Notes: a model not told the origin generated them from the letters alone. Shown: positions 3,001 through 37,410, counted from the stretch's first letter. The stretch: DNA of 64,000 nt from Thermoplasmatota archaeon (GCA_016928095.1 JAFGLL010000061.1:1181-65180); one strand, 5' to 3'. Translations and numbers: made by a program.

Positions 3001-6000
3001 CATCTTTATCGATTCCTTGTCAAGGTCCACGATACGATACCCGAACTTGGCACAGAATTTATTACTGGACGTGTTTTTTATCTGCCAGGCATCGAAAAAT
3101 TGAAAATTCGGATAGAAAGCCCAGAAATTATGGAACATCTCCCTTACCATTTCATCGGGTGCGGTTCCCAATTTGACACTTTCCCAGAGAGCGTCATAAC
3201 TTTCTTCGGGTATATTCTCGTCCTGGAACACCAGGTCAGTGAAAATAAGGACCTGGCCCGGGTCTTCCATTGTGTGTTTGGTATGCCATACCAGACCAGG
3301 ACCTTCATTCGGATGCATGAACTCGTTACGTAACACGATGAAATAAACGGGGTATACATCCGTGGTCATGCTAATACTTGGTAGGTAATCGAAATTACCA
3401 GCCAGAGGTATCTTGATCCACCCGTCATCCGAAACGGTCGGAGGCATCTTGAGCTGGAACACCGGTCGCTCAGGATAAACCGTTTTCGGATTGGTATTGA
3501 GCCAGTCCGGGTCGGTTCCTTCCCAGATCTCTACAATGGTCTCGCTGTAGAAATCGGCTTTGACCTCGATATAGTCCGCATCGAACAGGTCTCCTGCCTT
3601 AACATCAAGTCGTTGTGCGAAACCGTGAATACGGTTTAAAGAGGATCCTTCACACATACTTGACCAGAATTGCCAGTCATAGGTTCCCCGATCGTCGTAT
3701 TCGTTATCGTAATCGATTGTCTCCGGGTTTGTCTCACCTTCCATCAACCCGGCTTCCCATAACACATCCACACCGTCGATGTCCTTGTCATCATCGTCAA
3801 CTGTCGGGTCCAAACCTTCGACCGTTCCATCCCGATAAATAAAATACGGCCAGATATGCGAATACCAGACCTCATACCCGTCGTCAATGGAATCTCCGTC
3901 GGTGTCCAGGGAGGACGCATTGGTCTCGCCTACGCCAGCAACCTCGAAGGTGTACGGATCGAACGACCATACAGCATCAAATGGTTCGGTTTTACCGTCA
4001 AGGTTAAGGTCCTCGCCTTCATAGATCTGTTTCACGTTATCAGGGTCCATCTTCCGGTCCCATTTCCAGGGCTGGTATTCCCAGTAGTCAAGGTTAGCAT
4101 ACCTGTCCCAGAAAGAATCGTAAGATTTTCTATACAACCGTGGGAAAACCTCATCACCGTAATACCAGCCATCGATCCACCCATCAGGTAACCCATCATT
4201 ATCGGTGTCGGGGTCCATAGGATCGGTAAGGGTTGCGCCGTTGTCAGCGTCAAAGTTGTTGATCAGCGAGAAATTGAACGGTGACCGGTCGGACGAATGC
4301 GCGATACGTTCGAAAAAAGAACCGGTGCTGTTCACGTCTCCGTTGATGTATTCGATGAACTGCCCGGATAATCCGAGCTCGACACCGTCTCGAATACCGT
4401 CACCGTCGGAGTCGCGGTCGCCGAAGTCCGTCCCGAAATAGTCCTCCCATTTATCAGATATCCCGTCATGATCAGGGTCGGATGATAGTGCATACCTGGT
4501 CTCGTTGAACGCTTCGTCACCATCATCGATATCGTCCATGTCGGAATCCCTGTTCATCGGGTCAAGGCCCTGGTAATCAACCCGGATATAATCAAGGTAC
4601 TGCAAGGTTATCCTGTCCGGGTCGATGACACCTTCGGGAGTTTCACTGGTCTGGTCAGCAAGGTCAAGAGATAATTCCAGGTAATACATCATACCTCCCT
4701 GTAGCAAATACTCGCCCTGGGAAGTTATCTCGCCGATCACCGCCTTGATCGGTTCCTCATTCGGATCGTTTGATGTGTTGACCACCTTGATGATATTCAC
4801 GTTTTCGGTATAGGTGGACTCGGACGAATATTCGATGGGTGAGACCTCGTTATACGAGTAATAAACCCTCATCTGGAACGATTCCGATAAAATGTCCTGG
4901 AGATACTCGGCCTCTGAACTGTTGAGGTCGAGGTCGGTGACGTTAAGCGACCCCTGCGGAAGTAATTCCGTACGGGGTAGGTTCCCCGGGATCATGGTTC
5001 CCACAAGTTTATCCTGTCGGGATTCAGCCGGGTAGTTCAGGCTGAACCTGTATGTACCGGTTTTATCCGGGACGAACTGGAGTTTGATACTGGAATCTAA
5101 AATTGTGTCGTTGTAATTGGAACTTATCAGAGACACCGACCGCTGCTGGAAGAAACCGTAACCCGCAGTGGTCTTCAGAAGCTCGTTATCCTCGGACAGG
5201 AACTCGGTCATGTAGGTCGGGTTCCAGGGTTTGTATAGCTGAGCATCCTCGCATTCCAGGATGGACACGCCTCCGAACGTGACGATTTCTTCCCCATCGT
5301 TTACATTGTCATAGTCCGTGTCGGGGTCCAGCGGGTCCATGATGAACTCAAGGTTGATCTCGAGATGGTCAAGCGTGACATTGAGCGGGTTCTTGGTATG
5401 GATCTCCATCTCGTAGGTCTGGTCTGTCGTTTTCCCGTACAGGTATTCCAGAATGTCCGGTCCGAAATCGGATGATAGCTCGTCCAACGGGATTACTTTA
5501 CTGGATTCCAGTATCCCCGACCCGGAAGAAGATGCTTCGATCTCAATATACTGCGAGTATACTGATACAATATTTTGGTTGGATGTCGTATCGTTCAGCC
5601 AGCAGAAAGTGTTCTTATGTATCGCAGGAACACTTGGTGAACAGCTTTCCATCAGGATCTTGTTGAAGTTTACATTGATATCATATACACCAAGTGAACC
5701 CTCGGAGGTTGAGTAAACTATGTTCTCGTTGTAAACATCGAACCCGGCTACTGAGATGGGTACGAATTTTAGCTGGTTGTGTGAAAGATCGTAAATACCG
5801 ATCGCCGGTCTTGATTCGGTTCCTGAGCTTACCTGGAACCCGGCATATGCAGCAAACAGCAGGTTCGACCCGGAAATGCGCGGGTTCCAGCATTCCGTGT
5901 AGTCACCGGAGATCAGCGAGGTGGAGTTGACCTTTAGACATGCTTCGGTTGGCATTCCAGCATAAGGCTTGACCGAAGTGACACCTGCTATCCAGACCGA

Positions 6001-9000
6001 GGTTGCACCGGCATGGGTGTCGAGGAACACTATCCTATCATCTTCGATCCTCGGGTAGGTCTGGTCCCAGTCCTCGTCAATGAAGTTCGAACTGGTATTC
6101 AATTCTACATGGAAAATTCCGTTATAAGATATATCCTCGTCAATGTCACCATCGTCGTCATCGTCCAGATAATTGAATGGATCTTCATTGGTATAGCTAT
6201 CATCGTCATCGTCTGTCAGGTAACCGGGTTCGTAGAAATTAGGTATGCCATCATTGTCCAGGTCAATATCAAAAAGGTAAATATCGAAATCCGATCCGTT
6301 CCTGGCCTGGAACACGATCCTGTCTTCGTATATGTAAGGGTTCAGCTGTTCCTCAAGGGTAGAGTTCAGCTGCCTGAACTGCTGTCCGGTCAGGTTCAGT
6401 TCCACCAGATAGATGACCGATTCTGCTCCGTCCCAGCATTCAAACACTACATGGTTGCCGCAAATACTGGGATGGCGGAAATCCTTACCCTCGGAATTGT
6501 ATGTGTCGGTGGTATCCAATACCATGTCATAGACCTTGAGAACGTAATTCGAGCCGACAAGTTCGGTCCAGGCTATCTTATTCCCGTAAACGACCGACGG
6601 ATCACGATACTGATTATTGCTGGTGAACTCGTCAACCGGATCGATGTTCTCAAGGTCGGTCCGGAGCCGGAAGAATGCAGATGTGGCAAAAGATGTGCCT
6701 GGTAGGTATGATGTATGGATCGGGAATGTGTACCCGTATTCTTCGTCCTGCGAGAAATCCGTCTCCGTGATCTCCAGTATCGACGTATCCCCGGTATCAT
6801 CCCCGAACAAGGTCTGTTTTACCTGGGACATGTTGCAGACCATCGCCTTGTCCGCAAACAACCCGACACCCGCCTTCCTTGATGAGACAAGGTAATGAGT
6901 ACCTGATTCTTCGGGTTCGAAAGTGATGTAGTTCCACCTGAACTTATTATCCAGTGAGAAATTCTTCACTGCGATTGAACTCTGGCTACTGTCGAGAACC
7001 TCAAGCTTGAGGTTCTCTTCCTTGATCATCACATCATTCATCCAGACATGGGTCACCCCTTCACCCGGCGAGGTAAGGTTCTTGTTCCCGGCAGAGATAC
7101 CGAAAAAAATCCTGAAAGATGAATAGCTGCGAATATCAGCGGAACCGAGCTGAGAGTATGACCCGAGATAGTTCTTGCGATAGAACCCGATCTCTTTCCC
7201 GTCGGAGATCAGCATGATCTGGTTGCCGGCAAAGTCAAGATCATTATACTGAGCATTTGACCGGTTGGTCTCGGTGAATCCGATGGAGAAGGTCGCTCGC
7301 AACGAATCGTCATCACCGTCCACTACCCCAAATATCATCCTGCTTTCCCTGCCCAGTTTCGTCTCGGACCTCACGGTGTAGTTGAACAAACAGGTGAAAT
7401 TTGTCTGGAACTCACGAAGTGAGTAGTACACATCGTTGCTGATGTCCGTATCCATGCAGGCGACATTTACGCTGTAGTGTGCGTTCCCGGACCCGGAATC
7501 GTCGATAGTGATCGCGCCATCGGATTCACCAGACCCGACATGCTCCCAATTATCCATAAAATCATAGACATCATCGAATGTATCATAGACCTCCCACTCG
7601 GAGTCCTGATCTGCCCTACTACGGAAATAATACCGGTATTCGGTCCCATTGTCAAGCTGGACAGGGATGCTGATCAAGTTAGTTGATAAAGATTCGTTGT
7701 AGATCACATGACCACTGGACGCGTTGATGAACGGACTGATATCTCCGTCACCATAGTATTCGGCTTCGAACCATAATGTTCCCGACCGCTGCTCAACACC
7801 ATCGATGATGAGGTCCTTATCGGAATCCATCATAACGGGGTTGGTGATCAACCCGTCAAGCTCGTCATCGCTCCTGATTATTACGAACGAGTCCAGTAAC
7901 ACCGCATCGGTGGAATCTATCGAGATCTTCAGCATATCAGTGTCCGGGTCGATGGAGAATATCTCGGTTGTGTAATACCTGAATCTACTTGATAAAATAA
8001 ATGACTGGTTGATCGTCAGCGGGTCTGCGGTGTACCCGTCAACTTCCCACACAGATATTTTCACGGTCTGGTTGAACACCTGGTTCTGTGGACCCAGTCT
8101 GAACATGAATCTTATACTGTCATCCGATCCGGGCGGAACCGGTAAGTATTTATTGATGAGCGATCCGCTGGAAGTAGGTTTAAGAGCCTTCTCACCGCAG
8201 GCGTCCCAGGACGGTTCGATCTGGTCTGTTGTCAGGCCAAAGTCCTCGCCCTCATACCAGCAAACATTTTCGTTATTCTCCTGCGAGTCCAGGATATAAT
8301 CGTCATCGGAATCCAACGAATAGGAATTGATCCAGAGCGTCCGGCTCAGGCCGGGGGTGAACGATGCGTTGTTCAGTATACCGTGGTTGCACTGGTCGTC
8401 AAACTCGTTGGTCAACCTGAACTCCGGGTTGCCATAAGATGTTCCGTGGTATGAGTTCCCGCTAAGGTCGCGGATGGTATAGGTTCCTGAGGTCCAGTTG
8501 CTGTCCTCAAACGAGATGAATAAGTCAGGATCAGATGGTGGCTCGCCGATCATGAATAAATTGATCTCGTCAAATGTCAAAGCCCTTCCAAAGTATCCTA
8601 CGTCGTCGATCTTGCCCTTGAAATAATATTCGTTCCTGTTCCCATCGAACGTTGTGGCTTCCGACCCGTCGCCTATGAAACCGAATCTTGTAGCTGTGGT
8701 GCCAAGGCCCAGCCCATTATGTGGATTCTCGGCAATGGCTTCAAGGTCGCCGTCCAGGTATAGGTATTTGTCGGTGCCGTCGTAGACCGCGCACATGAAA
8801 TGCCAGTCCCCATCATTCACTGCGGTAGTCCCGATCAAGTCGTCAATTCCATTATCAGATTTCGTGGAAAAACCCATGTTCCCATTATCGCCCCGAACGT
8901 AAATGTTGAAATACTCACTCCGGTCAAAGTCGAGAAACGCCCAGTTCAGGTTCTGGCCCATACCGGATTCCGTTGTCTTGAACCAACAGAAAGCCGACAT

Positions 9001-26305: not shown

Positions 26306-27499
26306 TCACATAAGGCCCCCGAGCACCTTCAGGACCTCCGGATATCTCGAACCCACTGCCCTGAGGATCTCCTCGGTGGTTATATCCTTCATATCATATC
26401 CCGAGATGGCCGATATCACCTTGTCCAGGGTCTCGTCCGAGACCTCCAAGAGCTTCTCCTTGGCAATGTAATTTCGGGCCATCTCCATCTCCAGCCCGTC
26501 CCTCCACCTCCGTTCATAGGGTTCAAGAGCAGCCTTTGATGTGTCGTTCTTCTCCAGGGCCTCGCAGATGGTCTTCCCTGCCTGCAAGGCCGCATAGCAA
26601 GCGTTGTAAACCCCCCCTCCGGTAAGTGGGTCTATCATCCTTGCTGCATCCCCAACGATGACCAGATGGTCGGCCACGGTCTCCTCCAGCGGAAGGGACA
26701 CCGAGACGCCTCCTCCGTTTATTTCCGTTATCTTCCCCTTGGAGAACCTCGGGTTACTCGCGATGAAATCGTCCAGGTATCTTTTCGTATCTCCGGCCTC
26801 GTTAACGAATAGGCCGTTCACACCGAGGCCCACATTGGCTATTCCGTGTTCCTTGGGAAAGCACCATACATATCCGCCAGGAACATATCTTCTCCCGACG
26901 AAGAACTCTGTGTACCTGTCATCCGTTTCAATCCCTACCATCTCGTACTGCAGACACGTATCGATATCCTTTATGTCCAACTTCGTTTCGATACCTGCCC
27001 ATCTCGCGATAAGGGATTCGAACCCGTCGGCGGCCACGACGACCCTGGCCTTGACGGATATGGCCCCCGAGATGAGCTTGATCCCCACAACGACCCCATC
27101 CCCGGCATCCTCATAGGAGACGGCCTCGGCCCTCACCCATATCTCGGCTCCGGCCCTTGCAGCCATTTTGGCGAGCCTCTGATCGAAGACCTCCCTCTCG
27201 ATGATGAACCCGACCTCCGGTCCAGCGATCTCCGGTCCAAGGGTCAATACATGTCCGCCGGGTGAGATGATCTTTGCACCGTCCATCTCGGCGGAAATGA
27301 ATGAGGGGTCCTTTTCAAGACCTATCATGTCAAGGAGCTGTTTTGATATACCCTCCCCGCACCTTACCGGGACCCCGATCTCCGGTCGCTTTTCCACCAT
27401 GAGGACCGACCAACCGCCTTTCGCGACCTCCCTGGCAGTAACACTTCCCGCTGGCCCCGCCCCTATGACAAGGCAATCCACCACCTTCTCTTCATTCAT
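26306..27499 (-). CDS. Geranylgeranyl reductase (digeranylgeranylglycerophospholipid reductase)
   Basis: FAD-binding Rossmann motif VVDCLVIGAGPAGSVTAREVAKGG and a GGR-family body. The track ORF (to 27643) reads into the upstream ferredoxin gene. The real start is Met49 (MNEEKVV) at ~27499, overlapping the ferredoxin stop by 8 nt. Confidence 0.85.
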   Translation of the reverse strand: MNEEKVVDCLVIGAGPAGSVTAREVAKGGWSVLMVEKRPEIGVPVRCGEGISKQLLDMIGLEKDPSFISAEMDGAKIISPGGHVLTLGPEIAGPEVGFIIEREVFDQRLAKMAARAGAEIWVRAEAVSYEDAGDGVVVGIKLISGAISVKARVVVAADGFESLIARWAGIETKLDIKDIDTCLQYEMVGIETDDRYTEFFVGRRYVPGGYVWCFPKEHGIANVGLGVNGLFVNEAGDTKRYLDDFIASNPRFSKGKITEINGGGVSVSLPLEETVADHLVIVGDAARMIDPLTGGGVYNACYAALQAGKTICEALEKNDTSKAALEPYERRWRDGLEMEMARNYIAKEKLLEVSDETLDKVISAISGYDMKDITTEEILRAVGSRYPEVLKVLGGLM

Positions 27500-27680
27500 T
27501 GATCTCGCCTCCGTCGTACAAAGCGCCCACGGGACAGAGGCGGATGCATAGACCGCATCCCAGGCATTGCTCGCCCAGGACCAATATCCTGTTGTTCGAG
27601 AAACGGATAGCGCCGACAGGGCATGACCCAACGCATGCCACACATCGGATACATGTCAATTCGTTGGAGATCAGGTGCAT
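27492..27680 (-). CDS. 4Fe-4S ferredoxin (2x CxxCxxCxxxCP), translationally coupled to GGR
   Basis: 62 aa. CIRCVACVGSCP and CLGCGLCIRLCP cluster motifs. Its stop overlaps the GGR start. Confidence 0.8.
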   Translation of the reverse strand: MHLISNELTCIRCVACVGSCPVGAIRFSNNRILVLGEQCLGCGLCIRLCPVGALYDGGEINE

Positions 27681-27753: not shown

Positions 27754-27954
27754 TCAGCTATCCTCGTACACCAGGTCTCTCAGCTTGATCATGTTGTCGA
27801 TGCTTTTTACGATATACTCGAACTCCATGGGGCATTTGATACATTGACCTGATAGCTCGGCCATCTGTTTCATATGGTCCTCTTGGTATTTGTATACCTT
27901 CAGCGAGCCCTCCGCTCCGCACAGGGGGCATTTCATGTTCAATTTAAGCTGCAT
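27754..27954 (-). CDS. Small zinc-finger protein (CxxC...CxxC)
   Basis: 66 aa. CPLCG...CIKCP. Upstream of and co-oriented with the ferredoxin-GGR pair. Confidence 0.45.
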   Translation of the reverse strand: MQLKLNMKCPLCGAEGSLKVYKYQEDHMKQMAELSGQCIKCPMEFEYIVKSIDNMIKLRDLVYEDS

Positions 27955-29286: not shown

Positions 29287-29640
29287 TCAAGCCTCCCTTA
29301 TGCATCTGAACTTCATGGGGACCTCTCTGCCGCAACTGAGACATCTACCGACCGCTAGGGTCTTGTACCTCAGGTCGCCCGACATGGTCTTTTCATCATA
29401 TTGTTGGCAGATCAGGTTGTTGAACATGGTCATCTGCCTGGACCCGCATATCGGACATGTCCACTGTTCATAGGGTACGTAGTTACCTTCCATCTGAAGG
29501 ATGTCCTGATACGGGTACCTCTCGGGGACCGGTCTGTATCCGATGTCCTGTGGGTCTCCCATATGAAAAAAGCAGGTTTGTATGGAATATAAGGTTAACC
29601 TCGATTTTTTATAAATATTGGAAAAATAGAATTTTCTCAC
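29287..29640 (-). CDS. Zinc-ribbon protein (CPICG...CLSCG)
   Basis: 117 aa ORF. The real start may be an internal Met (MGDPQD or MEGNYVPYEQW). Last gene of the KaiC-like string. Confidence 0.35.
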   Translation of the reverse strand: MRKFYFSNIYKKSRLTLYSIQTCFFHMGDPQDIGYRPVPERYPYQDILQMEGNYVPYEQWTCPICGSRQMTMFNNLICQQYDEKTMSGDLRYKTLAVGRCLSCGREVPMKFRCIREA

Positions 29641-30602
29641 TCGACCTCCATGGCTGTGGGTATGTCCGTCGTCATGGTGATAGGGAACTCTTCCGGAGGT
29701 TCGATGGACCCTTTGATATTGAGAAATGTAAACGACCTTGACCAGTTATTCCCCCTCTTCTCCGCTCTCACCTCGATGACAGCATCGAAAAGTGTGGTCT
29801 CCTGCCCGGAGAGGCCATGGTCGTCCAGGGGACACCCGATCAGGGCCAACCCTCCTTTTTCCCTCAAGGCCTTCTTGAGCATTCTCATCCTGTCGATCAC
29901 TTCTTCACTTGATGTCTCCTCGACGAGGTCGACCAGGGAGTCCAGGACCAACCTGAAGGGAAGGACCTGTTTGGTTATTATCTCCGTGAGCTTCGAGAGT
30001 ATTTCCAGATGAGGTCCCATGGAGATGGTCCTGTCGCTTGAGTTGGATGATATCTCGAGGAGGTCAGTGACCATGATCCCCTCGGAGATGAACCTGTCCC
30101 TTTTTTGGAGTGCTGACAGTCTCCTGTCGATCAAGGGAAGTATGGAGACCAGTTCAGGCATGCTCTCGATCCCCAGGTCAGCCATTTCCTCCATCATCTC
30201 ACCCCCTGTCTGGTGGGTGGAGATCATTACCGAATAGTTATCCTCCTCCGGTGTGTCGAAGAACTGTTTCAGGAGCGTGTCCCCTCCACTTCCCTTGCCG
30301 AACTTGAAGAGGACCAGTTTGGAGGTCCCAAGCTTGTTCTGTATCCGTCTGGATATGCTCTGACTCCCCACAAGCAGCTTCATTTCTTGCCACCCCCTGG
30401 AGATATCAGGAAGGTATGGTCGATGGTGCTGGAGAGCTCCATCGATACTCTGGACCCTTCCGGGGCCTCCTGGTCGAACATCACTACCAGGAGCTGCTCC
30501 TCCAGCATTCGGTTGAGAAGGAAATGGAAGAACTCGCTCAATTGCCCCTGGGTATAGTACCTTTTCAGGCTTGTGAACGAGTCCAGCACCAGAAAGGAAC
30601 AC
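29637..30602 (-). CDS. KaiC/RecA-like protein with degenerate P-loop (pseudo-ATPase)
   Basis: The track ORF overlaps the upstream gene. The likely true start is the internal Met (MKLLVGSQ) at ~30383, directly abutting the upstream stop. Residual P-loop LVLFKFGKGSGGDT. KaiC-like C-terminal pattern (LVLDSLVDL ... NIKGSIEPPEEF). Confidence 0.45.
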   Translation of the reverse strand: MFLSGAGLVHKPEKVLYPGAIERVLPFPSQPNAGGAAPGSDVRPGGPGRVQSIDGALQHHRPYLPDISRGWQEMKLLVGSQSISRRIQNKLGTSKLVLFKFGKGSGGDTLLKQFFDTPEEDNYSVMISTHQTGGEMMEEMADLGIESMPELVSILPLIDRRLSALQKRDRFISEGIMVTDLLEISSNSSDRTISMGPHLEILSKLTEIITKQVLPFRLVLDSLVDLVEETSSEEVIDRMRMLKKALREKGGLALIGCPLDDHGLSGQETTLFDAVIEVRAEKRGNNWSRSFTFLNIKGSIEPPEEFPITMTTDIPTAMEVE

Positions 30603-30961
30603 TCATTGTTCTGTGATCTGAGTATCCTTTCGATCTCTATGAGGATGGACTCCAGAGATACCGGTGTCGATAGGAAAACGAAATCATCCCCCGAACTGAT
30701 GCGGGAACCCAGCGAGAGCGATATCGTATCGATCACCTTCAGGCCCATCCTCGGCATTTTTGAAAGAGATATCCTTCTCGTAAGAGCATTCGCGGACCAC
30801 TGGGTGGAGATCAGGATACCTCTCCGTCCCTGCCTCTTCGCAAGGTGCTCTATGATCTCCGCGAATTCTTTTATGTAGGCTTCTCCGGAAGCATACGCGA
30901 GGACCTGAGCACCTGGTCTGAGAGCGGGCTTGGGGATGGACATTACCTCCTCGATCAGCAT
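30380..30961 (-). CDS. KaiC/RecA-like protein lacking Walker A (pseudo-ATPase)
   Basis: 193 aa. Similar to the RecA-superfamily core (FLVLDSFTSL; LLVVMFD) but with no GxxxxGK[ST]. Its start abuts the stop of the upstream ATPase. Confidence 0.45.
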   Translation of the reverse strand: MLIEEVMSIPKPALRPGAQVLAYASGEAYIKEFAEIIEHLAKRQGRRGILISTQWSANALTRRISLSKMPRMGLKVIDTISLSLGSRISSGDDFVFLSTPVSLESILIEIERILRSQNNECSFLVLDSFTSLKRYYTQGQLSEFFHFLLNRMLEEQLLVVMFDQEAPEGSRVSMELSSTIDHTFLISPGGGKK

Positions 30962-31696
30962 CTACTTCACCTCCAGGGGTTTTATGCGGGGAACAAGGAA
31001 CACACCTTCCTTGGATATGTCTATCACGTAAGTGTTCCTGGCGTGAGGTGACCCCTTCCATCTCTCAATGGTCAGCGTGTTCATTATCACGGGGGGTTCC
31101 CTCTCCTTCCTGAAACCGACAATGATGTCGAAGATCTGATGTTGCATGGTCGGAACCTTCATCTCCTCAAGTGATGAACCGGTATCCAGTGCGATGAACG
31201 TTGACACTCCCATCTCCATCAGTTTGCCCTTGAGCTTCTGCATGAAGAACAGCTTGTTCCATTTTTCCAGGAGGTCGAGGATCGGATTGACTGGGTCGAT
31301 GACCAGTCTTTTAGCATCCAGGTGCTTTATGATCTGGACCAACAGTGAGAAGAACAGGTCCACATCGTCCGGTCCGGAGCTTTCAAGGTCAAGTCCTATC
31401 AAACCCATCAGGTCCTGGATGTTGAAGATCGATATGTATCCGTCCTTCAGCCAATTGGGCTGATGGGTTTTGAACGAGGATATATGACTTGACAGTCTTC
31501 CCGGTGGTTCGTTGGATATCAGGCAGACATCATTTGTCAGACTGGCACCTTGAAACAGGAAATGATACAACATGGAACTCTTGCCACATCCGGCCGGGCC
31601 GTAGAACAGCCCCATGGTTCCAGGTAACAGTCGGCCCAGCGTGATATTATCCAGTTGCTCGACCCCGAAACAGCTATCTCTATTCACTTCATCCAT
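30962..31696 (-). CDS. KaiC-like RecA-superfamily ATPase (intact Walker A/B)
   Basis: 244 aa. FGVEQLDNITLGRLLPGTMGLFYGPAGCGKSSMLYHF (Walker A), KRLVIDPV (Walker B), C-terminal ...RWKGSPHARNTYVIDISKEGVFLVP typical of KaiC/RadB-like proteins. TATA-like TTAAATAA ~25 nt upstream. Confidence 0.75.
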   Translation of the reverse strand: MDEVNRDSCFGVEQLDNITLGRLLPGTMGLFYGPAGCGKSSMLYHFLFQGASLTNDVCLISNEPPGRLSSHISSFKTHQPNWLKDGYISIFNIQDLMGLIGLDLESSGPDDVDLFFSLLVQIIKHLDAKRLVIDPVNPILDLLEKWNKLFFMQKLKGKLMEMGVSTFIALDTGSSLEEMKVPTMQHQIFDIIVGFRKEREPPVIMNTLTIERWKGSPHARNTYVIDISKEGVFLVPRIKPLEVK

Positions 31697-31824
31697 GAAT
31701 ACAGATATTCATATGGTTATTTAACATCTATCGAATGTGTCCACATGGATGGGGTCCCTGAAAAAAGAAGGTCCCATCAAGGATATCTGACGGAGACCGG
31801 TTATGGTCTTAAAAACACCCCATC

Positions 31825-34335
31825 TCAAACTGTCGGGTTCTCCCCCCCCCTCTCAAGCTGAGCTTCGACGGAGGTCTTCCTGTCAAGAGCATCATGGTTA
31901 TCGGGATTGAATCGCAGGACCCTCTTGTAACATTCGAGTGCCTTCATCGGTTCGTTCTGCTGCCTGAAAACATTGGCCTTGAGCATCCAGACCCTCTCAT
32001 TCCTGGGATCGATCTGGAGCGCCGAGGTCAAGGTGACGTGAGCTTGATCGAGAGACCCCATGGCGATGCAGGTCTCCGTGAGGTCGAGATATGTATTGAT
32101 ATTTGCCGGATCCACGGAGATAGCTTTTCTATAATGTTCGATGGCCGAACCCAGCTCTCCCTTGAGCCTGATGGCCTTGGCCATGGAGGACAGGACCTCT
32201 CCGTTCTCGGGTTCTATCTTCAGAGCCTTCTGGTAGCATTTCATTCCGTCATCGATGAGGTTGTATTCCTCGGTAAGGATCCTTCCCTTCTCCTGCCATG
32301 CCAGATAGTTCGAATCATCGAGACGGGTCGCCTGGTCCAGACATTTCAATCCTTCCTGATGTTTTTCGAAACCCCGAGATAGGACCATTCCTTTGTTAAA
32401 CCATCCATCCGAGCGGTCCGAATCCATCTTTGTAACCATGTCAAAGCAGTTGAGCGCTTCCTCCGGGTCATACAATGATTCGAAGTACAGTATCCCGAGT
32501 TCCTTCCAGAGTTCGGGTTCCTGGTTGTTCCTTTTTATCGTGTTCTTCAATAGTGTGACCGCCTCGGATGTCCTATCGAGATGTTCTGCAAGTATGTTCG
32601 CTTTGGAGATTATCATGCTTATGTTCTTCGGATCGGACCTGATGGACTCGTTCATGAACTCCAGTGCTTTATTGGGATCGTTCTTCAGATGCAGGGCGCC
32701 GAGCCCGGAAACGTAGAGAGCCAGGGGGTCGTGAGGCCTCAACAGGAGAAGCTCATCGGCGACCTGGATAGTATCCTTGAGTTCCCTTTTACATCTCAGG
32801 TGCATGTCGATGATACGATGGAGGATCTCATGGGCTTCAGGATTGGCCTCACGCGCATTCTCGAGGAATTGCAGGGAAGCTTCAATATCTCCTTCAACCT
32901 TTTCGGCTATCTCGCTTTTGAACATCCAGGCATGGATATGTGTGGGATCTGCCTCGACCACCTTGTCGAAATATTTCTTTGCCTTTTTCACATCCTTCAG
33001 CTTCTTGTAGGAGATCAACCCCATCCTGAAGGATCCCACAACGTGGTTGGGGTTGATCCTGAGGAGTGACCTGTAAGCAAGGATCGATTCCTCCATCCTG
33101 CTCAGCCTCTGCTCCAGTATCTGTGCCTTGTTGAACCATGCCTCTTCATTGTACGGGTCCTGTGTCAATGCGTATTCAAGGCATTTCAGGCCATCCTCCT
33201 CACGTCCCTTCGTTTTACCCATTATGATGCCTTTTTTGATCCAAACGGGATAATATTGAGGATCGATGTCCGTAGCCTGGTCATACGAGTACAATGCTTC
33301 CTCGATATCGCTAAGCTCATGATGGCACATACCGGAGTAGGCCCATGCATCTCGGTTCTCTTCGTTCTTGTCCAGGACCCTGTTGAAACACGAAATTGCT
33401 TTTTCGTATTGACCCGAACCGTACAGGACCTTTCCCTTTTCCAGAAGTAGATCGGGGTTATCACTGTCAAGGACAAGACCTTCCTCGATATAGAAAAGAG
33501 CGGTTTCTGTCGTGTCCCCCTCCAGTGCTTCCCTTGCTCTAACCAGAAGCTCCCTGGTGATCTTCTTTGTTTCCTCGAGGTGGGGTTCCGGCCTGTCCTT
33601 ACCAAGAGGCTCTATGGCAGATCCCAGATGGACCAGGTCCCAGGCATGGGTCCCGGATGGTCCGCTCTCCGGTCTATGATGGGATACTCTCGACTGTGAC
33701 CTCTCTTTGATAAGGACCATGTAATCAAGGATCTCCTCTGAGCTTACCTTTGTCGATCTCTCCCAGAGTGCGTTCATGTCCTCCAGAAGATTGTCCACCA
33801 TGTCCTTTCCGATGATCAGATGTCCATAGCCTATATCGTTCAGAAGCTGGTCCGAAGAGAGGTCGCCTGTGGCAATGATGGCTTTTTTTCCATCCATTAC
33901 GATCGCGCAGAGGGACAGGTTCGGGAGGAAACGGATCTCCATATTGGAATTTGGTTCGCCAAGGAGAAGGGCGAGTATCCTAAGGACCTCGGGGTCGATC
34001 CCCTTGGTGATGAAATCCGCCTCGGAGAATCGTAGCAACAGTCGAACGGCCATTTTCTTTTTTGACCTGGCGATAAGTATCGATTGTATCTTCCTCAGAA
34101 GATCCGTATCCATGGTCGGAGTGGCTATGAGCGCTTCTCTTTCCACCTCCATGAAGTGCCAGAGGAAAATGTTCTTCCAGGGGGTCTGAAAGAAATAATG
34201 ACCGCTCTCCTCGACCACGCTCATCCTTTTACCGCCTCGCCCATTGATCGGGCTCGTCACGATAGATGGGGGAACATCTACTTTATATTGTCTCCCTGTA
34301 TCTTCACATCGGAAAATCTCGATGGGATACATCAT
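31825..34335 (-). CDS. TPR-repeat protein with ~230-aa N-terminal domain (possibly a degenerate PLD-like fold)
   Basis: 836 aa. More than 12 TPR repeats (W/LG/Y/A/F/A/P pattern, e.g. AWAYSGMCHHELSDIEEALYSYDQATDIDPQY). N-terminal segment ...RFLPNLSLCAIVMDGKKAIIATGDLSS resembles the PLDc_2 strand-loop (xxDxxxxxxGSxN-like) but lacks the H-K pair. A G9 homopolymer lies 8 codons before the stop. Confidence 0.7.
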   Translation of the reverse strand: MMYPIEIFRCEDTGRQYKVDVPPSIVTSPINGRGGKRMSVVEESGHYFFQTPWKNIFLWHFMEVEREALIATPTMDTDLLRKIQSILIARSKKKMAVRLLLRFSEADFITKGIDPEVLRILALLLGEPNSNMEIRFLPNLSLCAIVMDGKKAIIATGDLSSDQLLNDIGYGHLIIGKDMVDNLLEDMNALWERSTKVSSEEILDYMVLIKERSQSRVSHHRPESGPSGTHAWDLVHLGSAIEPLGKDRPEPHLEETKKITRELLVRAREALEGDTTETALFYIEEGLVLDSDNPDLLLEKGKVLYGSGQYEKAISCFNRVLDKNEENRDAWAYSGMCHHELSDIEEALYSYDQATDIDPQYYPVWIKKGIIMGKTKGREEDGLKCLEYALTQDPYNEEAWFNKAQILEQRLSRMEESILAYRSLLRINPNHVVGSFRMGLISYKKLKDVKKAKKYFDKVVEADPTHIHAWMFKSEIAEKVEGDIEASLQFLENAREANPEAHEILHRIIDMHLRCKRELKDTIQVADELLLLRPHDPLALYVSGLGALHLKNDPNKALEFMNESIRSDPKNISMIISKANILAEHLDRTSEAVTLLKNTIKRNNQEPELWKELGILYFESLYDPEEALNCFDMVTKMDSDRSDGWFNKGMVLSRGFEKHQEGLKCLDQATRLDDSNYLAWQEKGRILTEEYNLIDDGMKCYQKALKIEPENGEVLSSMAKAIRLKGELGSAIEHYRKAISVDPANINTYLDLTETCIAMGSLDQAHVTLTSALQIDPRNERVWMLKANVFRQQNEPMKALECYKRVLRFNPDNHDALDRKTSVEAQLERGGENPTV

Positions 34336-34967
34336 ACCGTCAGGTGAGATATTATCCCGCTCATCCTCTCGTATTCCAGTACCGCCAGGACACGAGAGTG
34401 ACCATTGCAGACCGAGCGTATCCCCGATGCCATGTTCTCTTCTCTTTTCTCCTCAAGTCTCCTGAACCCTCTGAACCGGTTTATTGATCGGTCCCACTCG
34501 ATGGCGAGGCCTTCGGGAGTGTCCGATCGGAACTTCCGCCGGTTGATCCTCTTCAAACGAAGGGATTGCCTGACCAATGTGGTCCCGCCTATCAATTCGG
34601 TATATTGTTTGGAAAAGGATCCATCATCCATATCAAGAGGGACAAGGGGTATCTTATCCTTCAACGATATCCTGCATGCCTCCACCAGGGAAGGCGGTGG
34701 GACCTGGACCTCTCCGAATCTGGACATTTCCCTTGCATATATCTTCTCGGTGGTGGAGAGGAAAGTATTCTTGATCTTACCGTTGACCACGGCTTTTAGG
34801 CCCCTGATCTCTTCCCTGCTTATGTGCAAGCAGAGCATCTCTGGCCTGAACCCTTCATAAGTCTCGCGGACCAAGAGCCCTTCCGAAACAAGTCCTTTGA
34901 TGGTTCCCAGCAGTATGACCTGGCAATTACCAATATCAAATGTTCTTTGGCGATCCGTGGCGGTCAA
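34332..34967 (-). CDS. TraB/GumN-family-like protein (weak)
   Basis: 211 aa. N-terminal QVILLGTIKGLVSEG is loosely like the TraB GTAHVS motif. Overlaps the TPR gene start by 4 nt. Confidence 0.3.
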   Translation of the reverse strand: MTATDRQRTFDIGNCQVILLGTIKGLVSEGLLVRETYEGFRPEMLCLHISREEIRGLKAVVNGKIKNTFLSTTEKIYAREMSRFGEVQVPPPSLVEACRISLKDKIPLVPLDMDDGSFSKQYTELIGGTTLVRQSLRLKRINRRKFRSDTPEGLAIEWDRSINRFRGFRRLEEKREENMASGIRSVCNGHSRVLAVLEYERMSGIISHLTV

Positions 34968-34971
34968 TGTT

Positions 34972-37410
34972 TCATCTTCTCCTTGCAGAAGGTCCTTTTT
35001 GGTCGTTATTTAGTTCGTTGGATGCCTTCCTGGACCTGGTTCTGGAGGATCTGATCCTATCGCTCTCACCTGAAGGTCGACCTCTTGTCTTTATGATGAA
35101 GAGGTATACGGCGATGATAAGGACCATTAGCAGAAGGGTGGCCATAATGATCACCATTATGGGATCATCAGAGGCATCATCATCCCTTGACCTGTTGGGG
35201 TCCAGTGGAAAATGATCGTCCATATCGTTCACTTCGTCCCCGTCCGTATCCGGGTCATTCGGGTCCGTTTCGGTGTCATCCACACGACCGTTGGCATTCT
35301 GGTCCTCGAAACCATCCTTCAGGAAATCACCGTCGGTGTCAGGGTTCAGCGGATCGGTAGCGTTTCCGTCGCTCATGTCTATCTCTATTCCATCAATAAG
35401 ACCGTCCCCGTCGGTATCAGGATCGTTGGGATCGGTCTCGCCAGTATCAACGATGCCATTCCCGTTCTTATCCTCATCGATGTCCGGTATGCCGTCCTCA
35501 TCAGTATCGTTCGATCTTGGGTCCAGCACCATGATCGTCCTCCTCTCCGGGGTGGAAATATGGGTTCCGTCGAAAGCGTGTACCCATATTGTGTGAAGTC
35601 CTCCTGAGATATTGCCTGTGGAAACTTCGATCCTGAAATGCCCTCCGAGCAGGGAGTCGAAGATAGAATACGTACGGTAGGCCCCTTCATCGAACCTGAA
35701 TTTGACCCCGTAGATCCCCAGATCATCCTCGATATCCCCTTCGATGAGGACCGAACCCGAGACCTTGGTTCCGTTCACCGGCCCTGTGAGAGTGATATGG
35801 GGACCTTCGTTGGGAGGGTAAAGCGTCAGGGTGATCGAATCGGTGGGATCCGATATGTCACCCGATGTCACCTCGTATCCGTCCTTCATTGCAATGACCG
35901 TGATCGGCAAGTGGGAATAAACACCGGAGATGTCCCTTTGGAAGACCATGATCGATACATCTGCGGAGGTACCGTCAAGACCGGTGTGAGAGGATCCCAT
36001 CCATGTTCCGTCGACATTCTTCAGATCGATCTGGGCTCCGGCCACGGGGTCCAATGTCGGGTACTCGTTCACTGATACGTCCATTGTGATGACGTACCTG
36101 ATGGACGATCCATCATCGATGAACGATATCTCGGAGGGTGGAAGGGTATCCACCATATCTATCCTGGAGCCTTCGTCCAGTGTCATCTTGTAATTGATTA
36201 TCGAACCCAGTGTCGAGTTACCAACGACGAAGTGTGACGAGATAGCACTGATATGTGCATATCCTGAACCGGTGAATGTGCATTCCTCGAACCGACCGGA
36301 AGATCCTTCGGAATAGACGGTGGAGAATACCAGGTCTTCCGTTCCACCTCCATTGTTATTGAAGGATGTATCGGAAACATCCAGGGTTGTCTGGACCAGG
36401 TGAAGGGCACTCTCTCCGGAATAGATGATATCCGAATTCACAATATCAAGGTGAGCACCCAATGCCTGTATCCCGTCGGAATAACTCTCCTCGATCAAGA
36501 CCCCGTCAAGTTCCAGCGTGGTCTTGGTAAGGGATGAGATACCCACGTTCGCTCCGCTTATCAGCCCATTCGTTATTGATATCGAAGAATTAAGGGATAA
36601 TAGCTGGTGCGAGGTTCCGGTCGTTCCTGAGACCAGTTCCAATCCATATCCCTCTATGGTCGAGTCCACGGAATTGATGCCTATCTGTCTGGAATCCGAT
36701 ATACGCGATCCACCCAGATACACCTCCGACATGTAGGACCTGATCCCTGTACCACATTCCGCGATCGTGAGTTCTTCAAGGTGCGAGGCCTCGACCTTCA
36801 GCAAATGGATCCCGTAGTATGTGGAATTCTCGATATGGGTCCTCTCGACAACAAGGGACCTTCCACTCCCCATCGGACCCTTGATATCCAGTCCGTTCCT
36901 CGTTGAATTCAGGATAGCAGTATCGAACATTCTCAGGTCCGAGGAGTGGGAACGGACCGCGATCTCCGCTCCTTCGAAGGTCGTGTTCATTATCAATGGA
37001 GAGGCTGAGGGGTCAGCTTCCATAAGATTGATCCCGCCCCATATACTGCCTGATCGGACCGGTCCGAGATAGACCGGTTCGAGGACCGTCCCTTGAAATA
37101 GAGGGGCGCAGGTCATGTTCAAAAAGACATGTTCTTCGAAAAGCACCCTTGTGCCTGGACCGAGGAATAACGGCTTTGAGGCAGGTATGTCTAGGTTTCG
37201 GATCACATGGTATTCGTTCCCCTCTTTGATTATGATCGAAGGATAGGACCCCATGATATCCTCCATGGAATAGAAACCCTCGGGTGTGTCGGTGCCTGAG
37301 CAGGGAGCCATGATTAGTCCAAGACCCATGATCAACATCAGGATGGACAGGGTCGCCGGGATCGTTGTACCCTGTCTTGGAAAGGGAGTGGTTACCCTCT
37401 CTTTTTGCAT
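34972..37410 (-). CDS. Large surface protein: signal anchor, parallel beta-helix repeats, thrombospondin-type-3-like Ca-binding repeats, C-terminal TM plus basic tail
   Basis: 812 aa. N-terminal TM TIPATLSILMLIMGLGLIMA. Beta-helix repeat patterns. C-terminal DTDEDGIPDIDEDKNGNGIVDTGETDPNDPDTDGDGLIDG..DPLNPDTDGDFLKDG..DPNDPDTDGDEVND, then TM PIMVIIMATLLLMVLIIAVYLFII and an Arg/Ser-rich tail. Paralogous in design to the giant protein at 1-16839. Confidence 0.8.
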   Translation of the reverse strand: MQKERVTTPFPRQGTTIPATLSILMLIMGLGLIMAPCSGTDTPEGFYSMEDIMGSYPSIIIKEGNEYHVIRNLDIPASKPLFLGPGTRVLFEEHVFLNMTCAPLFQGTVLEPVYLGPVRSGSIWGGINLMEADPSASPLIMNTTFEGAEIAVRSHSSDLRMFDTAILNSTRNGLDIKGPMGSGRSLVVERTHIENSTYYGIHLLKVEASHLEELTIAECGTGIRSYMSEVYLGGSRISDSRQIGINSVDSTIEGYGLELVSGTTGTSHQLLSLNSSISITNGLISGANVGISSLTKTTLELDGVLIEESYSDGIQALGAHLDIVNSDIIYSGESALHLVQTTLDVSDTSFNNNGGGTEDLVFSTVYSEGSSGRFEECTFTGSGYAHISAISSHFVVGNSTLGSIINYKMTLDEGSRIDMVDTLPPSEISFIDDGSSIRYVITMDVSVNEYPTLDPVAGAQIDLKNVDGTWMGSSHTGLDGTSADVSIMVFQRDISGVYSHLPITVIAMKDGYEVTSGDISDPTDSITLTLYPPNEGPHITLTGPVNGTKVSGSVLIEGDIEDDLGIYGVKFRFDEGAYRTYSIFDSLLGGHFRIEVSTGNISGGLHTIWVHAFDGTHISTPERRTIMVLDPRSNDTDEDGIPDIDEDKNGNGIVDTGETDPNDPDTDGDGLIDGIEIDMSDGNATDPLNPDTDGDFLKDGFEDQNANGRVDDTETDPNDPDTDGDEVNDMDDHFPLDPNRSRDDDASDDPIMVIIMATLLLMVLIIAVYLFIIKTRGRPSGESDRIRSSRTRSRKASNELNNDQKGPSARRR

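Follow-up and report, generated by a model that had tools for sequence, protein, structure and literature searches.

KaiC-like ATPases have been proposed as the principal signalling hubs specific to archaea, although biochemical studies exist for almost none of them. Such hubs, together with inactivated KaiC domains ("iKaiC", represented by DUF835 and MEDS), are concepts set out in PMC5847659, which cites Makarova, Galperin and Koonin 2017. KaiC-family ATPases are also associated with archaeal type IV pilus loci (Makarova, Koonin and Albers 2016, PMC4858521), and ArlH (PMC8978795) and CirA (PMC10983859) are hexameric KaiC-like regulators of archaella and pilin-dependent motility; ArlH is nucleotide-dependent and a regulator, not a motor. 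Here, we describe three consecutive genes that encode a KaiC-family ATPase (KaiC1) and two KaiC-like proteins without a P-loop (iKaiC2 and iKaiC3), located in a stretch of 64,000 nucleotides (nt), hereafter the window, from an uncultured Thermoplasmatota archaeon. With moderate confidence, we regard the operon KaiC1-iKaiC2-iKaiC3 as the functional unit and a mixed KaiC-type oligomer, in which one type of subunit is catalytic and two are not, as the most economical explanation; the trio is probably a conserved regulatory complex. The three genes were assigned as follows:

30962-31696, minus strand: KaiC1, a single-domain KaiC-family ATPase of 244 amino acids (aa), by Pfam PF06745
30380-30961, minus strand: iKaiC2, a KaiC-like pseudo-ATPase of 193 aa, by weak Pfam and profile matches
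29637-30383, minus strand: iKaiC3, a KaiC-like pseudo-ATPase of 248 aa, by hhalign to KaiC1 and by Pfam matches of its orthologues

The iKaiC2 sequence is identical to that of the NCBI protein JXA22_05700 from a metagenome-assembled genome (MAG). The trio belongs to a group of six co-directional genes on the minus strand at 29287-34967, or of seven genes at 29287-37410 when an 812-aa surface protein is included. A first-pass annotation, made by a model from the sequence alone, had described the six genes as a tightly overlapping string that forms a signalling or regulatory ATPase module. The gene map confirmed the six co-directional genes, and a KaiC-based module was retained in our analysis, of three genes rather than six. 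Conservation was analyzed in 18 related loci from GTDB genomes, all of them Thermoplasmatota MAGs, and in further contigs (L022/L023). The synteny of the six genes was kept in all 18 genomes and in L022/L023, and the gene order in the lineage was invariant down to protein identities of 27-48%. For all six genes every orthologue was intact, lengths were constant, and pairwise ratios of nonsynonymous to synonymous substitution rates (dN/dS) ranged from 0.04 to 0.25 (from 0.05 to 0.21 for the trio genes). Two reservations attached to the first-pass annotation, namely that the degenerate genes might be pseudogenes and that the cluster might not be syntenic in any other genome, were thereby removed, and pseudogene status of iKaiC2 and iKaiC3 was rejected. 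The flanking genes of the lineage, which encode a formimidoyltransferase-cyclodeaminase, a nitrilase-family hydrolase, a thioredoxin, a geranylgeranyl reductase, and a peptidyl-prolyl isomerase, were equally invariant. Because these housekeeping flanks are as syntenic as the six genes, synteny within the lineage says little about function. The GC content was even throughout the region, and no transmembrane segments were detected in any of the six proteins.

Judged by its sequence, KaiC1 is a full member of the KaiC family and a bona fide ATPase with intact motifs. It matched Pfam KaiC PF06745 with E=8e-23 and 81.4 bits (cut-off 26.6), and it contains the Walker A motif GPAGCGKS, Glu63, and the Walker B motif LVIDP (LVID134). 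G33, G38, K39, E63, and D134 were invariant in 19 orthologues, with the Walker A consensus GPxGxGK[ST]. Comparison of the orthologue profile with solved structures yielded KaiC (E=7.5e-27) and the archaeal single-domain KaiC-like protein PH0186 (1.3e-20), and a match to RecA was confined to the P-loop (4.5e-8).

The other two proteins had been described in the first-pass annotation as KaiC-like without a P-loop, and the Walker A lysine was indeed absent from iKaiC2 in 28 sequences and from iKaiC3 in 18 orthologues. The additional claim that only the first KaiC-like protein keeps Walker A and Walker B was correct for Walker A, but the Walker B aspartate is present also in iKaiC2 and iKaiC3, which are therefore not wholly stripped of motifs. 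In iKaiC2, which has 190-193 aa in all 28 homologues, the loop is shortened to A-S-G-E, without a lysine in any of the 28 sequences, and a Walker B-like LVLDS (hhhhDS) is kept. The single sequence remained just under the Pfam cut-offs for DUF7090 (1.3e-5, 25.4 bits versus 27), DUF7504 (8e-4, 20.3 bits), and KaiC (4e-3, 16.9 bits), and its homologues bear precomputed PF23365 and PF24336 assignments. The best match of the iKaiC2 profile among solved structures was FlaH 4yds (E=1.9e-4). An exhaustive profile search retrieved 718 representative relatives at E<=1e-3; those that were scanned carry DUF7504, DUF7090 or KaiC, sometimes DUF835, and one of them (P0064) passes the Pfam KaiC cut-off; the DUF7504 cut-off, too, is exceeded among the relatives. 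The canonical Walker A motif GxxxxGK[ST] was missing from 148 of the 149 relatives checked, and in the exception (P0070) it belongs to a KaiC domain of its own at the N-terminus.

For iKaiC3, a profile-profile comparison revealed homology to KaiC1 over the full length (hhalign probability 86%, E=5e-6, 213 columns). Thirteen of its 18 orthologues matched Pfam KaiC PF06745 (best 1.8e-8) and 12 matched DUF7504, and the best match of the profile to a solved structure was FlaH 4wia (E=0.013). The loop reads G-x-G-[ST]-[GA]-G-[DE] in 18 of 18 orthologues (G-x-G-S-G-G-[DE] in the window), and thus the Walker A lysine has been replaced by an acidic residue in every orthologue. Walker B is kept, as PFRLVLDS in the window and as PFRxVxD-[ST] in the orthologues. 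On this evidence, both iKaiC2 and iKaiC3 can be classed as inactivated KaiC proteins, which are homologous to the KaiC/RecA core and have lost the lysine of Walker A.

Within the trio, the ATG of iKaiC2 abuts the stop codon of KaiC1, and iKaiC2 and iKaiC3 share a four nucleotide ATGA overlap; both arrangements are kept in most loci of the lineage. Tight coupling is limited to these two junctions. The tightly overlapping string of the first-pass annotation therefore holds for the trio, but not for the other three junctions, which are spacers of 74-128 nt. Orthologue mapping placed the conserved start of iKaiC3 at the ATG at 30383 and not at the GTG at 30602. An extensive overlap of iKaiC3 with iKaiC2 was rejected, as the 321-aa open reading frame (ORF) that begins with this GTG is not conserved.

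Outside the lineage, the order KaiC1-iKaiC2-iKaiC3 and the pattern of active and inactive members recur at 20-27% identity and in unrelated contexts. In one such locus (L028), a gene for a 259-aa KaiC with the intact loop GSCGTGKT comes first; its stop codon overlaps by one base with an iKaiC2-like gene for 193 aa, and a gene for a 247-aa KaiC-like protein (loop GSPGAGVE) begins 8 nt further on. The lengths of 259/193/247 aa compare with 244/193/248 aa in the window, and the arrangement is the same in two further loci (L026 and L027). The distant genes each matched best the hidden Markov model (HMM) of their positional counterpart, with values of 1.3e-34, 1.3e-19, and 7.4e-24. The surroundings of the three loci are unlike those of the window and include a radical SAM gene, HepT/MNT, a metallophosphoesterase, and a pilin. 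In L028, a HepT/MNT (nucleotidyltransferase) toxin-antitoxin pair at 3152-3770 lies between the trio and its pilin gene.

A metagenome scan was seeded on a narrower iKaiC2 subgroup of the distant-trio type; it yielded at least 600 pattern matches and at least 587 confirmed relatives, and 80 loci were kept. A KaiC1-like gene was located directly upstream of the iKaiC2-like gene in 60 of the 62 loci with room upstream, a KaiC3-like gene directly downstream in 38 of the 64 with room downstream, and the full trio was present in 28 of the 51 with room on both sides. The distant trios have the KaiC1 loop GS[VC]GTGKTS, and their KaiC3 proteins have GxPGxG[TLVI]E and PFRxVxDSL, the latter being the same motif as in the window. 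An archaeal type IV pilin gene (N-terminus ...AVSPVIATILMVAITVVLAAVLYVMV...) was found no more than 2.5 kb downstream in 27 of the 43 loci with enough sequence, 17 times after KaiC3 and 10 times directly after iKaiC2.

Domains of this kind are also joined in single proteins. One fusion (P0070) combines an active KaiC domain with an iKaiC2-like domain, and three proteins are tandem iKaiC proteins (P0056, P0082, and P0191). In Altiarchaeota, three fusions (P0060, P0072, and P0084) contain N-terminal SNAP/TPR repeats and a C-terminal P-loop-less KaiC-like domain according to Pfam, and P0060 and P0072 additionally contain CARDB/Ig-like domains; P0073 shares the C-terminal iKaiC domain, and these four giant proteins span 923-1776 aa. 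Other iKaiC2 relatives have N-terminal hydrophobic or coiled-coil segments, or DUF835. The natural fusions show that such domains work together in one polypeptide elsewhere. A second stand-alone iKaiC subgroup (P0064-like) was observed at 6001-7877 of a 740-kb metagenome contig (L025), with no active KaiC adjoining; there, the P0064-like gene heads a run of four ORFs of about 100 aa, of which the first three overlap and which have no Pfam match.

The trio is surrounded in the window by the following genes and domains:

34972-37410, minus strand: surface protein of 812 aa, with Pfam Beta_helix and Big_7 and NCBIfam CglD-like repeats; context only
34332-34967, minus strand: TraB/Tiki-fold protein of 211 aa with a TTG start, by fold comparison; adjoins the module and is probably not a member
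31825-34224, minus strand: pseudo-PLD and TPR protein, 799 aa from the conserved start (the longest ORF extends to 34335)
33745-34224, minus strand: PLD-fold N-terminal domain of this protein, HKD lost, by fold comparison and motif register
31885-33528, minus strand: TPR solenoid region of this protein, by Pfam TPR families
29287-29562, minus strand: zinc-ribbon protein of 91 aa, CxxC...CxxC, with an SGDL motif between the knuckles (the longest ORF extends to 29640)

Overlaps of 4 nt had also been claimed between the TraB-like and TPR genes and between iKaiC3 and the zinc-ribbon gene, and neither survived orthologue comparison. The conserved start of the TPR gene is M38 (34224) in all 14 orthologues compared, none of which has the 37-codon N-terminal extension. 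This start is preceded by a GGNGG-type ribosome-binding site in the orthologues and by a Shine-Dalgarno-like GGCGGT at 34231-34236 in the window. When orthologue sequences were built from the M38-equivalent start, 6 of the 10 that were looked up were present verbatim in a public protein collection, and thus gene callers had picked this start independently. The overlap with the TraB-like gene arises from the over-long TPR ORF, and the real spacer has 107 nt. Likewise, the zinc-ribbon gene has its conserved start at the ATG at 29562; the GTG that overlaps iKaiC3 is not conserved, and the real spacer has 74 nt. The spacer between the TPR gene and KaiC1 has 128 nt. The suspicion recorded with the first-pass annotation, that wrong starts might conceal extensive overlaps, was thus half right: the TPR and zinc-ribbon starts were wrong, and their correction gives spacers, not extensive overlaps.

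All three spacers contain boxes that resemble promoter elements:

31717-31724, minus strand: TATA-like box TTAAATAA, 20 nt upstream of the KaiC1 ATG
34279-34288, minus strand: A/T-rich box ATATAAAGTA, 54 nt upstream of the TPR start
29587-29593, minus strand: TATA-like box CTTATAT, 24 nt upstream of the zinc-ribbon ATG

An A/T-rich box (TTAAATAA, TTTAATTA, ATTAATTA or TTAAAATA) was present at a similar distance 5' of the KaiC1 ATG in 15 of 15 loci compared, and a TTATA-type box (CTTATAT, TTTATAT, CTTATAA, TTTATAA) was present in the spacer between iKaiC3 and the zinc-ribbon gene in 13 of 13. The spacer between the TraB-like and TPR genes contains a (G)ACAAGGTAAAGTA-like box, sometimes degenerate, in most of the 14 loci compared. 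In addition, T-runs occur in the spacers 3' of the upstream stop codons, e.g. after the stop codons of the TPR gene and of iKaiC3. By their position and conservation, the boxes and T-runs may represent archaeal TATA boxes and terminators. Because they occur in each of the three spacers, the string probably consists of at least three or four transcription units, and probably only the KaiC trio is translationally coupled. This calls for caution with such methods, since the placing of starts by the longest ORF, together with collinearity throughout the lineage, had largely created the impression of an overlapping string of six genes.

All domain identities that had been proposed by eye, i.e. an active KaiC, two P-loop-less KaiC-like proteins, a pseudo-PLD on a TPR protein, a TraB-like protein, and a zinc ribbon, turned out to be correct. 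Profile searches of the PDB by sequence gave no match for the TPR N-terminal domain or for the TraB-like protein, and fold comparison alone resolved both. The TPR protein is predicted to be cytoplasmic; it matched TPR Pfam families with E of about 1e-41, with TPR_1, TPR_2, TPR_11, TPR_16, and TPR_19 matches over residues ~270-817 of the long ORF. Its N-terminal domain, for which an inactivated PLD-like fold had been suggested, has the fold of the PLD superfamily: the best match was the DUF1669 domain of FAM83B (15.5), followed by NucT (15.2), Nuc (14.9), and Zucchini (13.6), and lower matches included the TrmB sugar-binding domain (12.7) and MITD1 (8.2). The motif segment reads N-L-S-L-[TC]-x4-D111 ... 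T-G120-D-L-S in 15 orthologues. In a register set by motif and secondary structure, the catalytic motif HxK(x)4D(x)6GSxN is not matched; the histidine, lysine, and asparagine are missing, and the domain is therefore a pseudo-PLD. FAM83 DUF1669 (kinase-anchoring), the TrmB sugar-binding domain, and MITD1 are likewise non-catalytic PLD folds, with 9-18% identity to the TPR N-terminal domain, which, unlike them, is fused to a TPR solenoid of about 550 residues.

In the zinc-ribbon protein, C36, C39, C74, and C77 were invariant in 13 orthologues and form the two CxxC knuckles of a zinc ribbon; database matches were generic and weak (Rpo12/RpoP, RPB9-type, and rubredoxin-type ribbons). As neighbours specific to this lineage, the TPR-PLD and zinc-ribbon genes may, by adjacency, encode partners of the trio. 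Another small zinc-ribbon-like protein (66 aa, CPLCG ... CIKCP) is encoded at 27754-27954 on the minus strand and is called as a gene on the source contig too. On the same strand, a 62-aa ORF with two CxxCxxCxxxCP motifs (2x[4Fe-4S] ferredoxin type) at 27492-27680 lies directly upstream of the geranylgeranyl-reductase-like gene (26306-27499), whose GTG-extended longest ORF of 445 aa overlaps it; gene callers give 397 aa.

The TraB/PrgY/GumN-Tiki-ChaN-erythromycin esterase superfamily includes catalytic members with a 2His/2Glu motif (PMC6254334). The TraB-like protein has the TraB/Tiki alpha/beta fold, in agreement with the first-pass annotation. No member passed the threshold of Pfam PF01963, and the best value (E=0.13) was obtained for 1 of 14. 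K24, E29, E53, E74, E86, and R201 are conserved, and there is no invariant histidine among 39 sequences. From motif inspection, both catalytic histidine positions have presumably been replaced (GT[IV]K; E-x-E-R versus GxGH). The most divergent homologues (34-40% identity, from other archaeal MAGs) follow a PDDEXK_19+HTH_3 gene, the stop codon of which they overlap by 4 nt, and no TPR, KaiC or zinc-ribbon genes are near them. Such pairs are located at 3869-5421 of L020 and at 217-1769 of L021, and the PDDEXK_19+HTH_3 protein has 313 aa. This adjacency suggests a different, possibly older functional partnership for the TraB-fold protein. Given this different location of its distant homologues, the TraB-like gene is probably a neighbour unrelated to the trio. 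Its TTG start lies 4 nt after the stop codon of the surface protein gene, and the pair is adjacent throughout the lineage. The surface protein comprises a right-handed beta-helix, a Big_7 Ig-like domain, acidic CglD/thrombospondin-type-3-like repeats, a C-terminal transmembrane helix, and a basic tail; its N- and C-terminal segments are hydrophobic.

Several alternative explanations were weighed. All six genes could form one signalling module, with a TPR scaffold and pseudo-enzymes around a KaiC ring. The genes are co-directional and adjacent in every lineage genome found, all six proteins are cytoplasmic and under purifying selection, and the Altiarchaeota fusions join TPR/SNAP repeats to iKaiC domains. 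Furthermore, comparison with L021 shows the block of TPR gene, trio, and zinc-ribbon gene, together with the nitrilase-family gene, between the TraB-like and thioredoxin genes, as if it had been gained or lost as a unit. However, at three of the five junctions the genes are set apart by spacers that contain conserved TATA-like boxes and T-runs, the flanking genes are just as syntenic, the TraB-like homologues elsewhere have a different partner, and homologues of the TPR N-terminal domain, the TraB-like protein, and the zinc ribbon are missing from all 80 distant loci. We therefore consider a six-gene module unlikely. Alternatively, the trio might be a pilus or archaellum accessory like ArlH/FlaH that modulates a type IV pilus assembly ATPase encoded elsewhere, with the local neighbours being irrelevant. 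FlaH structures (4yds and 4wia) were the best PDB sequence matches of iKaiC2 and iKaiC3, Pilin_N-type genes follow the distant trios, KaiC-family ATPases associate with type IV pili (PMC4858521), and the mechanism of ArlH has been described (PMC8978795). This explanation is nevertheless rather doubtful, as no pilin, ArlI/PilB-like or TadC-like gene was seen beside the trio in the window or related loci, ArlH keeps the Walker A motif that iKaiC2 and iKaiC3 have lost, and the similarity to FlaH is weak (E 2e-4 and 1e-2).

It is established that RecA paralogues form heteromeric complexes in which some members are inactive, such as Rad55-Rad57 and the Rad51 paralogues, and a recombination mediator complex similar to RadA/RadB/Rad55-57, with the PLD nuclease-like protein and a DNA-binding zinc ribbon, was also considered. 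The source annotation "KaiC/GvpD/RAD55 family RecA-like ATPase" would agree with it, as would the closeness of the PLD fold to Nuc/NucT nucleases and restriction enzymes. We nevertheless regard it as very improbable: the KaiC1 profile matches KaiC (E ~1e-27) and RecA over the P-loop only, the PLD domain lacks the catalytic residues and has the non-catalytic FAM83 domain as its top structural match, the locus has no DNA-repair neighbours, and the distant trios adjoin pilin genes. Hardly any weight is given to a defence system against phages or mobile elements, or to decay of the degenerate genes. A PLD-like domain, TPR repeats, and ATPases are combined in the region, weak PADLOC matches to DrmC and TPR were obtained, and a HepT/MNT toxin-antitoxin pair lies beside one distant trio. 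Yet, PADLOC gave no system-specific match, only generic TPR and weak DrmC (PLD) ones, the position is stable, collinear, and not island-like with even GC content, and the intact orthologues with dN/dS values of about 0.04-0.25 speak against decay.

The mixed KaiC-type oligomer is the most economical explanation because translational coupling, deep conservation of the order and of the active/inactive pattern, purifying selection, the fusions, and the known hexameric KaiC-family regulators (ArlH, CirA) all point to it. Binding and hydrolysis of ATP would be confined to KaiC1, which, being related to KaiC, may also autophosphorylate. iKaiC2 and iKaiC3 would be ancient paralogues that kept the RecA/KaiC core and the Walker B aspartate and lost the P-loop lysine. 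Translational coupling could yield the three proteins in a fixed proportion, and they would assemble into a mixed RecA-like oligomer, in which the pseudo-subunits may act as structural or regulatory partners and as docking surfaces. The nucleotide state of KaiC1 would then be read out via protein-protein contacts, as in a KaiC-type signalling hub. In the lineage of the window, the trio is flanked by the putative cytoplasmic pseudo-PLD/TPR scaffold and the zinc ribbon, each with its own promoter-like element, and these may be lineage-specific partners. As the trio lies directly upstream of type IV pilin genes in many other archaea, its ancestral output was probably the control of pilus or surface-structure genes or of their assembly.

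Several points weigh against this interpretation. The hhalign comparisons of iKaiC2 with KaiC1 and with iKaiC3 were not significant, and the evidence that iKaiC2 is KaiC-like comes from Pfam, from the profile match to a solved structure, and from transitive matches. No KaiC3-like gene was detectable downstream in 26 of the 64 distant loci with room there, and therefore the third subunit is not obligatory everywhere. Neither the 64-kb window nor any of 21 loci taken as relatives or for comparison (L002-L022) gave a match to the pilin N-terminus HMM. The TPR and zinc-ribbon proteins are linked to the trio by adjacency in one collinear lineage with equally conserved flanks, and the TPR gene, the trio, and the zinc-ribbon gene each have their own promoter-like box. 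Finally, hetero-oligomer formation, the regulatory role, kinase activity, and the interaction with the TPR and zinc-ribbon partners are features that we infer. A more far-reaching version, put forward tentatively and as a possibility of limited probability, is that an ancient, obligate hetero-oligomeric KaiC ring is a widespread, so far undescribed archaeal regulator of type IV pilus or surface-structure biogenesis, which was rewired here to a pseudo-PLD/TPR scaffold and a zinc-ribbon effector in an apparently pilin-less lineage.

The trio spans Thermoplasmatota MAGs and hundreds of soil and sediment metagenome contigs and is thus a concrete, testable system. It could reveal what pseudo-ATPase subunits contribute to the shaping of a RecA-like ring, in parallel to the Rad51 paralogues and to CI/CII of KaiC, and the frequent linkage to pilins suggests a route into the regulation of archaeal pili. 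Like the Rad55-Rad57 and Rad51 paralogue complexes, it pairs an active RecA-fold ATPase with weak or dead paralogues; in contrast to them, its affinity is to KaiC and not to RadA/Rad51, and it has no DNA-repair context. With cyanobacterial KaiC it shares the alignment of KaiC1 along the whole KaiC domain, including Walker A, the catalytic glutamate, and Walker B, and the assembly of diverged RecA-like units, and the fusion of active KaiC and iKaiC in P0070 mimics the CI-CII tandem. However, cyanobacterial KaiC is a tandem CI-CII hexamer, whereas the trio consists of separate genes, and two of its three proteins cannot bind ATP canonically; nothing points to an oscillator. Membership in the KaiABC clock was not supported, as KaiC1 is a single domain of 244 aa and no KaiA- or KaiB-like gene is present at the locus; the nearby thioredoxin was rejected as a KaiB candidate, since it keeps the redox CxxC motif CAPC and matches PF00085.

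The similarity to the KaiC proteins of type IV pili and to ArlH and CirA lies in the position of the distant trios immediately upstream of Pilin_N-type genes, and in FlaH being the best structural match of iKaiC2 and iKaiC3. Adjacency to pilus genes characterizes the distant relatives (27 of 43) and was not observed in the window or in L002-L022. Both ArlH and CirA keep Walker A, and a three-paralogue composition is not mentioned in PMC4858521, PMC10983859 or PMC8978795. Neither iKaiC2 nor iKaiC3 is an ArlH/FlaH: the NCBIfam scores of 13-18 bits compare with cut-offs of 194-215, the locus contains no arl genes, and Walker A is lost. The first-pass annotation had called the module undescribed. 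We found no description of a fixed trio of one active and two inactive members in the literature searched on iKaiC, DUF7504, and DUF7090, and supplements based on arCOGs may already tabulate the neighbourhood; hubs of iKaiC and KaiC proteins (PMC5847659) and the link between KaiC and pili (PMC4858521), however, are published. With the hubs, as summarised in PMC5847659, the trio has in common single-domain archaeal KaiC-family ATPases accompanied by KaiC-derived domains that lack ATPase motifs, and fusion or adjacency to sensor and scaffold domains including TPR. In contrast to them, it is an operon of fixed composition, in which three stand-alone paralogues, one active and two inactive ones that differ from each other, are translationally coupled and keep their order across distant lineages. 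In summary, the trio extends the known archaeal KaiC/iKaiC signalling theme and is not categorically new.

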